64,000 bases of DNA from positions 832,015-896,014 of the forward strand of contig OZ244061.1 in the NCBI GenBank assembly GCA_965215475.1, written 5' to 3'. Position 1 is the first letter of the stretch. Each line of letters starts with the position of its first letter. Origin of the DNA: Rhodothermales bacterium (GTDB taxonomy: Bacteria; Bacteroidota; Rhodothermia; Rhodothermales; Bin80). The translations under genes were made by a program, and so were the position numbers. The notes under the pieces were generated by a model. The model saw only the letters and a program-made list of their open reading frames with translations, did no database searches and was not told the DNA's origin. Positions 61,419 to 63,923 of this stretch are shown here, in pieces.

Positions 61419-61639
61419 CGAGTGGCGACCCCTATGAAACAGTTGTAGGGTTAGAAGCCCATTGTTAACGAATTCCAAAACGTTCGGCGAGTTAGATCTA
61501 ACGAAAAACACGATTCTAATCTCCACACAAAGGCTAAATCCATCCGACGGAATTCACAGAGAGGGGTTGTAGAGTCAAGAGTTCGTCGCGTTTCTTATGT
61601 CCTACGGGTCATTCGCTTTCGTTGTTCACGCACCCATTG

Positions 61640-62414
61640 GTAGGCTCCTACAAGTCGTTTCCGACCTCCTGCTCGTCAAACCGGACGTGCGGTTTTCCCG
61701 CATCCGGCTTTCCGTTGATCTCATGACTTCGCCCATGGAAGGCCTTTGGTCGTTGGAACAAGGCGATGTAATCCATAGATGTTCATCTGAAAAATGCGCC
61801 TATTTCCCAGTTCGCACCTTGTATTTGTGACAAAACCACGGTCGCAACCGCTTGAATGGCTTTCTCATGTAGTACGGTCCGAGATCTCTGAACCCTATCA
61901 GATCCTATTAGGTGTTCACCAGTACTCATGTCCTTTCGTTCTTATCCATACTATGATCAACGGAGGATTCCTTTTCTCTACGGACATTCCTCCGCGTCTT
62001 CGGTACTACAGACCCATCCGCCCAACCTGCCCCTCGTGGGATTCTGGTTGCCTTGTACATCGGCACCAATAGGGCTTCCCGTGTTGCCACTCCTTCCATC
62101 TTACATGCATCCCGAGATCAATACCCCGACGGATATAGCCCGGTGCGTGTAGTGTCGGTCTTCTCCTAGACGATCAGCGGCCTTCCTCTATGAAACGAAG
62201 GGTCGGCTCCCGTATTACATGTTTCGAGGCCTGCTCAATCTTCATGCTCGTTTCGGCCTGCATGCTCGCTGAATCGCCTACGCGATCCTTTTATCCAAAA
62301 TGCTTCCATTCATGTCGTTACCTCCATCAATCGTTTTGGTTGCTACCAGATGGAATGACAGTTGCTGGGTGGATCTCGCAACCCACAAGAAAAAAGCATC
62401 TTTCCACGGCACAC
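61640..62414 (-). ncRNA. ORF-less group II intron (class C-like); the 3' boundary is uncertain
   Basis: The minus strand starts GTGTGCCGTGGAAAG (GUGYG) right after a 20-bp palindrome. Domain V at 61710-61677 reads AAGCCGGAUGCGGGAAAACCGCACGUCCGGUUUG, with the AGC triad, a G-U wobble, a GAAA(A) loop and a CG bulge. No long ORF and no RT motifs. Confidence 0.6.
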
Positions 62415-62434
62415 GTTTCAACACGTGTTGAAAC
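62415..62434. repeat. Perfect 20-bp palindrome GTTTCAACACGTGTTGAAAC (stem-loop immediately 5' of the intron)
   Basis: Read directly from the sequence. Confidence 0.9.
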
Positions 62435-62647: not shown

Positions 62648-63923
62648 GGTTCTATCACCATTTGTATGGAATTGATTAATTTTGGTTTCACCAAAATTAT
62701 TTTTCATGCTTGATACTTATTTAAAAAATTCAATGCATCAGTGGTTAGATTTAGATTCTTGCTGGAGTATTGATCATGTGGAAACCAATGTGAAGAAGGG
62801 GCGAGTGGATCTTTATATTTCTCATTCGGGGAAGGATCTTGTATGCCCAGATACGGGTGAGTCTGGTACCTTGTATGACCATCGCAAGAAGCGTCAATGG
62901 CGCCATCTGGATCTCTTTCATTTCAAGTGTTTTCTTCACTGTAGGATTCCCCGTGTACTGACTCCTAATGGTCCAAAGACGGTCACCATTCCCTGGGCGG
63001 CTCCATCCAGTCGAGTCACCTATGCTTTTGAATGTTTTGCCATTCGTCTGCTGAAAGCAACTAAGAATCAGACCAAAACAGCAGATCTTCTTCGGTGCGG
63101 ATTTAACCAGCTCCATCGTATTATGCACCGTGCTGTTGAACGCGGAGAGTCACGCAGATCTCTGGCAGGAATTCACCATATCAGTATTGATGAAAAGGCT
63201 CTCAAGCGCGGACATACCTATGCAACGATTGTGAGTGATTCGGATCGTGGAGTGGTCATTGATATTGGACCGGGACGGACGAAAAAAGGCACGATAGAAC
63301 TCTTAGAATGCCTTTTAGGGCAAATCAGATAGAGACGATATCTACGGATATGTGGAAGGCCTTCATTGGAGCGGTTGCAAAGGTGTTCCCCCATGCCCTC
63401 ATGATTCACGATCGGTTTCATTGTATCCAGTATCTCAATCAAGCCATCAATCAAGTACGAAGGCGGGAGGTCAAACAGCATCCAGAACTCAAAGGGAGCC
63501 GATATGCACTGTTGAAAAACGAAAACAATCGTACGGAAAAACAGGAAGACATCTTCCAAGTGGTGAAGGAATTCAACCTCAATGTGAGTGTCGCTTGGCG
63601 GTTACGGGAAGATTTCAAAGCCATCTTTGAATGTGCATCGTTAAAAGAAGCGAAAGCGTATCTCAACTTATGGCTTGACGAGGTGAACGAGGCTGGTGTC
63701 AAAGAAGTCATGAAAGTTGCAGACATGTGTAAGAATCACTTTGATGGCGTCTGCAACGCATTATGGAACCGTCAGTCCAATGCAAAAGCAGAGAGGATTA
63801 ATGGAAAAATTCAAGAGATCAAAACCATTGGTAGAGGATATAGAACCTTTGAAAATTTCAGAGTTGCTATTCTCTTCTTTTGTGGCGGTCTGGATCTCTA
63901 TCCACACGATTCGTGATAGAACC
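62648..63923 (+). mobile_element. ISL3-family insertion sequence (copy 2) with 8-bp target site duplication
   Basis: IRs are GGTTCTATCAC (62648-) and GTGATAGAACC (-63923). It is flanked by TCTTTTTG at 62640-62647 and 63924-63931. Confidence 0.8.
62706..63916 (+). pseudogene. ISL3-family transposase split by a -1 frameshift near 63318-63322
   Basis: ORF1 contains ...CPDTGE...RQWRHLDLFHFKCFLHCRIPRV and ends LLECLLGQIR* at 63332. ORF2 (from 63308) continues ANQIETISTDMWKAF...NAKAERINGKIQEIK...GYRTFENF in the -1 frame. Confidence 0.8.

Follow-up and report, generated by a model that had tools for sequence, protein, structure and literature searches.

In the genome of a Rhodothermales bacterium (complete; a single contig of 3.71 Mb), an interval of about 1.1 kb next to the gene bcp is free of open reading frames (ORFs), raising the question of which kind of element occupies it and how it came to lie there. 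The interval belongs to a stretch of 64 kb, here referred to as the window, and had been ascribed in a preliminary description to an ORF-less, class C-like group II intron inserted directly after a stem-loop. For the purpose of annotation, the gap is indeed explained by a group II intron; its class and its 3' boundary are corrected here. The copy in the window is very probably a non-autonomous, ORF-deleted, class F-like (IIB-type) group II intron, and most likely an inert, decaying relic.

Boundaries, folding and origin of the intron

The intron occupies positions 61569..62414 on the minus strand (5'-GUGUG...CUAC-3'), as delimited by Rfam matches, family alignments and head-to-tail tandems in relatives. 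Two covariance models matched this strand above their gathering thresholds (GA): the group-II-D1D4-4 model (RF02003) at a domain I segment (62246..62388, minus strand; 60.4 bits, GA 49; E-value 8.7e-11 with the 64-kb window as search space) and the model for domains V and VI (DV and DVI; RF00029) at 61712..61569(-) (43.7 bits, GA 40). No other Rfam family reached the gathering level in the entire window. The earlier assignment as an ORF-less group II intron is supported, and all sequences quoted in its favour are present at their positions, including GTGTGCCGTGGAAAG directly after the palindrome on the minus strand.

The 5' end had been called exactly: GUGUG at 62414-62410 agrees with the consensus GUGYG. 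The 3' end (...GACUCUAC) was found at 61569, i.e. 71 nt beyond the candidate site formerly placed at 61640, the difference being due to about 70 nt inserted into domain VI throughout the family. Three other fragments in the genome stop at the same point and then diverge, the same terminal octamer recurs in about 20 relatives, and tandem copies in relatives pass from ...CUAC to GUGCG without a gap (L074 1008/1009; L072; L090). Furthermore, the cmscan alignment to RF00029 puts the 3' strand of DVI at 61569, with a 67-nt insertion. Since both ends are thereby fixed (62414 and 61569), the intron measures 846 nt. The 3' exon starts with AACCCC (61563..61568, minus strand); AAC is common to other copies of the subfamily, which mostly read AACCCC or A-N-CCCC.

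For the analysis of DV and DVI, 21 copies diverging by up to about 40 % were aligned and folded with RNAalifold. Domain V (61678..61710, minus strand), recognized by RF00029 and by covariation among these copies, comprises an AGC triad, a 2-nt bulge, a distal stem of 5 bp (UGCGG/CCGCA) and a GAAAA loop. The triad (61709-61707) is invariant in all 21 copies, and 5 of the 13 pairs display compensatory changes, among them 3:35 (GC in 12/21, AU in 9/21), 8:30 and 10:28 (AU in 17/21, GC in 4/21). The DV element AAGCCGGATGCGGGAAAACCGCACGTCCGGTTTG at 61710-61677, covered by the RF00029 match, had thus been identified exactly, and the helix proposed for it proved to be both conserved and covarying across related copies.

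Domain VI (61572..61674, minus strand) is expanded. The predicted fold has 11-13 bp in its basal helix, beyond which a branched insertion of about 70 nt follows distally. The branch-point A is bulged at 61575, i.e. 7 nt from the 3' terminus (61569) and hence within the range of 7-8 nt used for its recognition. Compensatory changes were detected by RNAalifold in the basal helix at 43:161 (AU or GC), 46:158, 47:157, 49:156 and 50:155 (UA or CG), and the insertion possesses a covarying helix of its own (80-83:129-132). In the window copy, one basal pair is G.A. The class F-typed intron Ni.ha.I1 requires only 89 nt for DV and DVI together, and therefore the insertion is taken, on the evidence of these predicted folds, as a feature of the present intron family. 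This insertion, which contains a hairpin (GCGAAAGC), is conserved with covariation in the entire family, whereas Ni.ha.I1 as the class F reference lacks it. An extension past domain VI as in B.c.I4 was considered as source of the 70 extra nt and rejected, because the covarying basal helix encloses these nucleotides and the bulged A lies beside the true 3' end.

Of 38 genomes from the same bacterial family (Rhodothermales metagenome-assembled genomes, MAGs), 33 were found by DNA search to contain relatives. In many of these relatives, two blocks about 1.13 kb apart correspond to the window intron, one to its first 562 nt and the other to its last 290 nt. Full-length members span 1986 nt, the block in between representing an ORF for an intron-encoded protein (IEP) of 446-461 aa. 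Tested on full-length relatives, the IEP contains the Pfam domains RVT_1 and GIIM only, lacks an endonuclease (En) domain and passes the NCBIfam model TIGR04416 with 325-332 bits. A description of this intron family was not found in the literature searched, including that on sponge symbionts.

The window intron is an internal-deletion derivative of this IEP-bearing family. According to the ORF list and the alignment, its DIVa region within domain IV (61858..61974, minus strand) retains the first 24 codons of the IEP (MSTGEHLIGSDRVQRSRTVLHEKA; 61929-61858), with the start codon at 61929. Alignment to full-length copies places the breakpoint of a deletion of about 1.14 kb at 61854..61858 (minus strand), joining IEP codon 24 to approximately codon 396; a conserved DIVa stem, predicted on full-length relatives, ends just 5' of it. 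The C-terminal remnant (approximately residues 396-446; 61724..61865, minus strand), recognized by tblastn and alignment, is frameshifted and interrupted by an in-frame TAG and an 11-nt gap, and yielded two high-scoring segment pairs in different frames. The former statement that no credible ORF is present thus holds insofar as the IEP gene is lost, but not for its first 24 and approximately last 50 codons (the latter frameshifted and with a stop), which remain.

The closest full-length copy, 84-88 % identical, resides in genome G009 of the same genus. Its IEP gene (L048:631-1767) is split by an ORF of 378 aa, judged by eye to encode an IS110-type transposase, and its IEP fragments carry TGA. 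IEPs with 74-77 % identity (L074-L142) occur in MAGs of Rhodothermales, Longimicrobiales, Acidimicrobiaceae, Dehalococcoidia as well as Gamma- and Alphaproteobacteria, several of which bear sponge or coral bin names. As at least five phyla or classes are represented, the introns may have passed horizontally between members of shared communities.

Loss of the ORF was no singular event in the family. The ORF-less copy L074:159-1008 from an Acidimicrobiaceae MAG shares 93-94 % identity with a neighbouring full-length copy and 68 % with the window copy. Its 5' breakpoint is identical to that of the window copy, and the 3' breakpoints are 16-19 nt apart. From its closeness to the adjacent full-length copy, the two deletions are concluded to be independent, so that by comparison of the sequences the ORF would have been deleted at least twice, both deletions starting right after the predicted DIVa stem. 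In IIA introns, the IEP binds to DIVa (PMC2882425).

Exon pairing and probable affiliation to class F

The 5' exon ends with a perfect 20-nt palindrome (62415..62434), which had already been noted in the preliminary description. It reads GUUUCAAC-ACGU-GUUGAAAC, forms a stem of 8 bp, is present a second time in the genome (C1:909816) and takes part in pairing with the intron. Its last six bases, UGAAAC (62420-62415, exon -6..-1), constitute intron-binding site 1 (IBS1) in the 3' arm and pair over 6 bp with exon-binding site 1 (EBS1; GUUUCA, intron nt 219-224; 62191..62196, minus strand). Among 73 distinct copies of the family, complementarity between intron nt 219-223 and exon positions -1..-5 is preserved in 90-95 %, through 3-5 pair types at each position, and five or more positions covary. 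IBS2 (ACGUG, 62426-62422, exon -12..-8) forms the centre of the palindrome. Its counterpart EBS2 comprises 4-5 variable nt that follow GAAAC within a loop (GAAAC-NNNN(N)-AAU) about 20 nt upstream of EBS1, the core being CAUGU in the window copy (intron nt 194-198; 62217..62221, minus strand), and covaries with exon positions of about -13..-8. At least 4 contiguous bp between EBS2 and the exon were formed in 40 of 57 distinct combinations; in 1000 trials with shuffled exons, the number averaged 19.7 and never exceeded 30. Such counts are inflated by relatedness, yet 24 different EBS2 cores are involved. As the register of EBS2 varies, it was missed by a column-wise scan and found by a loop-anchored test. 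At the window copy's own site, EBS1 pairs over 6 bp and EBS2 over 5-7 bp. EBS1 and EBS2 are present in the family; EBS3 was not located in it, and the first position of the 3' exon is A in most copies.

Pairwise comparison of the family IEP revealed highest similarity to that of Ni.ha.I1 (44-45 % identity over the full length; 345-353 bits, blastp), which is typed as "g3, Bacterial F" (PMC3552965 Table S2), F denoting its class in the Zimmerly database and g3 its group according to Toro & Martinez-Abarca 2013. Lower scores were obtained with Sr.me.I2 of g1 (30-31 % identity; 160 bits, blastp), RmInt1 of class D (28-30 % identity; 130-134 bits, blastp) and GsI-IIC of class C (148 bits, phmmer). 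On the RNA level, RF02003 is matched by Ni.ha.I1 with 102 bits and by the present family with 60-64 bits; RmInt1 matches RF01999 instead. The g3 members in Table S2 range from 1911 to 1988 nt with IEPs of 393-442 aa (PMC3552965). Class F, whose status as a class is contested (PMC3552965), has RNAs of the IIB type (PMC4424553 Table 1). Class F/g3-like (IIB-type) is the best-supported label suggested by these sequence comparisons; it is a label rather than a proven placement, as the IEPs were compared pairwise.

A probably decaying copy and its rival explanations

The preliminary description had left open whether the intron depends on an IEP supplied in trans or is a fossil. The fossil is favoured because no cognate IEP was detected by tblastn and genome search in the complete 3.71-Mb genome; the alternative of an IEP in trans becomes less likely. 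The content related to reverse transcriptases (RTs) amounts to C-terminal remnants in two truncated intron fragments, decayed RTs and one distant IEP (C1:2045960-2047123) with 29-30 % identity to that of the family. Full-length, IEP-bearing copies are likewise missing from this genome, where the window copy is accompanied only by three 5'-truncated fragments of about 370, 370 and 145 nt (G000:C1:363055-363358(-), 445696-446002(+) and 232463-232605(+), respectively). All three retain the exact 3' end followed by AAC(CCC), and two of them still contain the C-terminal 87-133 codons of the IEP. Such fragments could result from abortive reverse transcription or from later deletion.

Signs of decay are also apparent in the ribozyme core. 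Relative to a consensus of domains I to III (RNAalifold on 58 copies; 95 pairs), the window copy breaks 11 of 95 pairs, compared to 0-7 in IEP-bearing copies and 2 in an intact relative of 77 % identity. Among the breaks specific to the window copy are several changes from G-C to A.C, disruption of the pair that closes the EBS1 stem and a 13-nt loss that removes a conserved small hairpin. The G.A pair in the basal helix of DVI is a further sign of decay.

These observations can be combined into the following scenario. The full-length form in relatives measures 1986 nt and encodes an En-less RT and maturase (X) protein in domain IV; in the window copy, an internal DIVb deletion has removed about 1.14 kb of this ORF, leaving DIVa and approximately the last 50 codons. 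As the site still pairs with the intron's own EBS1 and EBS2, the copy is concluded to have arrived by reverse splicing into DNA and reverse transcription, without a hairpin-recognition route. Priming probably occurred from the replication fork, as in other En-less introns. The palindrome may be a short repeated target unit whose centre and 3' arm by chance contain IBS2 and IBS1, respectively. With presumably no cognate IEP left to fold, splice or mobilise the intron, conserved helices would have begun to accumulate mutations, DV still being intact. The window copy would then most likely be inert, a relic without efficient mobility or splicing.

Several points weigh against this account. Three of the 11 broken pairs are also broken in the closest full-length copy (G009) and may be features of the subfamily rather than marks of decay. 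Judged from its intact elements, namely DV, the branch-point A, the GUGYG 5' end and the pairings of EBS1 and EBS2 with the exon, the window copy may have preserved residual self-splicing. The ORF may have been lost either before or after insertion at this site. Finally, the class was deduced by comparison with one typed F/g3 reference as well as with D, g1, C, CL and ML.

The same intact elements (DV, branch A, 5' GUGUG, EBS1/IBS1 and EBS2/IBS2), together with the retained DIVa as the usual primary IEP-binding site, would be expected of a still-working non-autonomous element, i.e. one that is transcribed, splices alone or with a heterologous maturase (e.g., that encoded at C1:2045960-2047123) and retrohomes. 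Mobilisation without a cognate IEP may occur among relatives: ORF-less copies reside at several sites in the sister genomes G030 (L152-L158, L063; at least four different flanks) and G027 (L064, L168-L170), and copies at different sites are 96-99 % identical over the first approximately 450 nt. A cognate IEP was not found in either of these complete genomes, where the best candidate (E<=1e-40) reached 39 % identity. These findings suggest that the copies spread recently with no cognate driver in the genome, or that such a driver has been lost in recent times. Moreover, driver IEPs with relaxed specificity are known in T. elongatus (PMC2882425). Nevertheless, such an active role is unlikely for the window copy. 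It is the only full copy in its genome, the others being 5'-truncated, and about 11 conserved pairs as well as a hairpin are disrupted. The candidate helper, at 29-30 % identity, is far beyond the known distance between driver and passenger. The intron is furthermore intergenic and antisense to both flanking genes (bcp upstream and a gene for 1012 aa downstream), and no promoter-like site above chance was detected 5' of it.

The class C-like alternative, according to which the intron recognizes a terminator-like stem-loop and inserts just after it, derives its appeal from the perfect hairpin with an 8-bp stem that abuts the 5' splice site. The second copy of this palindrome (L005, G000:C1:909785-909842; TTTCGGGCTTGTTTCAACACGTGTTGAAAC) is intron-free, followed by TTTTCTG, and located about 58 nt past the end of a gene for 486 aa, between convergent genes. 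It has about 12 nt of upstream flank in common with the window, and the similarity ends at the last base of the palindrome. This second copy would provide a perfect IBS1/IBS2 for the window intron, but has a different 3' exon. Inverted repeats are also present in the 5' flanks of a few relatives (L065, L082, L084), and the best PDB sequence matches of the IEP are class C RTs, no class D, E or F structures being among the matches.

Class IIC introns are defined by a CGC triad, a shortened distal stem of DV, an IBS1 of 3-4 bp, absence of EBS2/IBS2 and small size (PMC1702495), and in place of IBS2 they use a terminator or attC stem-loop, past which the splice site follows at a distance of 3-11 nt (PMC1702495). 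None of the six features tested applies to the window intron. Its triad is AGC, the distal stem of DV has 5 bp and is not 2 bp shorter than in IIA/IIB, and the EBS1-IBS1 pairing extends over 6 bp. EBS2/IBS2 is present and covaries. The ribozyme is not abbreviated (1986 nt minus the 1341-nt ORF, i.e. about 650 nt), and the splice site coincides with the last base of the stem, with IBS1 inside the stem, a layout opposite to that of IIC. The IEP and the Rfam D1-D4 family, too, indicate class F/g3. Among the 5' flanks of 70 distinct family insertion sites, folded in comparison with shuffled sequences, hairpins were not enriched (mean z -0.11; median +0.15), and the window flank is one of six with z < -2. 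The stem at the occupied site contains only 2 G-C pairs and lacks a T-run, and in a scan for promoters and terminators, where nothing exceeded chance, the palindrome was not terminator-like. From the lack of enrichment over 70 flanks it is concluded that the hairpin belongs to this one target, which is a short repeated unit, and does not serve the intron as a recognition element. The assignment to class C is therefore abandoned as highly improbable.

Beyond the intron, 233 nt upstream in its own orientation, an ISL3-family IS occupies 62648-63923(+). Its transposase is split in two ORFs (62682-63332 and 63308-63916) with the Pfam ISL3 helix-turn-helix, zinc-ribbon and DDE domains. The nearest relative at this locus, G022 (L173, G022:C1:681995-682514 and downstream), is 86 % identical through bcp and has a gatB-like gene, identified by eye from its translation, directly after bcp and no intron. 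An empty orthologous site was unavailable in this nearest genome, synteny being lost 50 nt after bcp. From the adjacency of bcp and gatB in G022, the 2.5 kb from bcp to the next gene (intron and ISL3 copy) appear, by comparison of the two sequences, to be specific to the present lineage. Co-option as a structured non-coding RNA or regulator, e.g. as antisense RNA or terminator for bcp or the downstream gene, would agree with the persistence of the intron in the intergenic region directly downstream of bcp and with its many stable helices, but can hardly be correct in view of this lineage-specific arrangement, of mutations falling in conserved helices and of the ISL3 copy having landed 233 nt upstream.

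ORF-less relatives and comparison with known systems

The preferred reading of the window copy as a relic applies to a single member of a family in which further ORF-less introns occur. A further ORF-less lineage of 780-885 nt is present in multiple copies in five other genomes, and cognate IEPs are intact in G013, G029 and G031. In G031, locus L163 (G031:C1:3727300-3730600, minus) contains three ORF-less introns of 885 nt arranged head to tail; on the reverse complement they begin at 180, 1065 and 1950, and each terminates with ...GACCCUAC, from which the sequence continues with GUGCG without a gap. Two-copy tandems resembling this array were observed at L074, L072, L090 and L166. To judge from the pairings, head-to-tail tandems likely originate from re-invasion of an occupied 5' junction. 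Targeting of the DVI hairpin of the preceding intron was rejected as explanation, because EBS1 of the downstream copies does not pair with ...CUCUAC and the upstream copy pairs with the genomic exon. G013 harbours a twintron, in which an ORF-less intron of 869 nt (L083:2637-3505) is inserted into the 3' part of an IEP gene (L083:1501-2682) at a site that matches its own EBS1/EBS2. This arrangement occurs twice in the genome with equal spacing, the second locus being G013:C1:1327379-1330231.

It is conceivable, though on balance doubtful, that the window copy is one instance of a larger, family-wide phenomenon of recurrent ORF loss and of a multi-copy ORF-less lineage persisting without cognate IEP. 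If so, the relation between driver and passenger would be much looser than in T. elongatus, and the branched DVI insertion could be part of it. By itself, the window copy is an ordinary decaying remnant of a known kind of element, adding a class F-type example from Rhodothermales that is stranded without its protein. The wider family may offer a natural system for studying how ORF-less introns persist and are mobilised, its traits of interest being recurrent DIVa-sparing loss of the ORF, tandems of ORF-less copies, the expanded DVI and cross-phylum spread in MAGs.

Among characterized introns, Ni.ha.I1 from plasmid 1 of Nitrobacter hamburgensis X14 resembles the family in an IEP restricted to RT and X (440 vs 446 aa), in overall length (1911 nt vs 1986 nt in full-length relatives; other g3 members 1985-1988 nt; PMC3552965) and in sharing the Rfam D1-D4 family RF02003 and an IIB-type RNA. 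It differs by its proteobacterial host, the present family occurring in Rhodothermales and other MAGs (several of them sponge- or coral-derived bins), by its higher RF02003 score (102 vs 60-64 bits) and by its compact DV and DVI (89 nt vs 144-157 nt, including a distal DVI insertion of about 60-70 nt). The window copy, moreover, lacks the ORF. The B.h.I1-type class C introns (PMC1702495) are similar with respect to an En-less IEP, an intergenic position and an inverted repeat directly upstream, whereas the window intron shares none of the six IIC features tested.

C.te.I1 of Clostridium tetani (PMC4424553) is likewise an ORF-less intron in a genome without related IEP. It is, however, located in a gene, self-splices robustly and undergoes alternative splicing (PMC4424553), in contrast to the intergenic, antisense window copy with its disrupted helices. 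The nearest precedent for ORF-less relatives, tandems and twintron context is provided by Thermosynechococcus elongatus, where TeI3 (Mohr et al. 2010, PMC2882425) parallels the window intron in a large DIVb deletion with N- and C-terminal ORF remnants and a retained DIVa, and where twintrons and multi-copy ORF-less relatives are found as well (PMC2882425). TeI3 itself belongs to CL/IIB1 and has an IEP with En domain (PMC2882425). All 17 TeI3 introns go back to one ancestral deletion and are accompanied by six potentially active driver IEPs (PMC2882425). In the family of the window intron, by contrast, deletion occurred independently at least twice, and no cognate IEP was found in the genome to which the window belongs.

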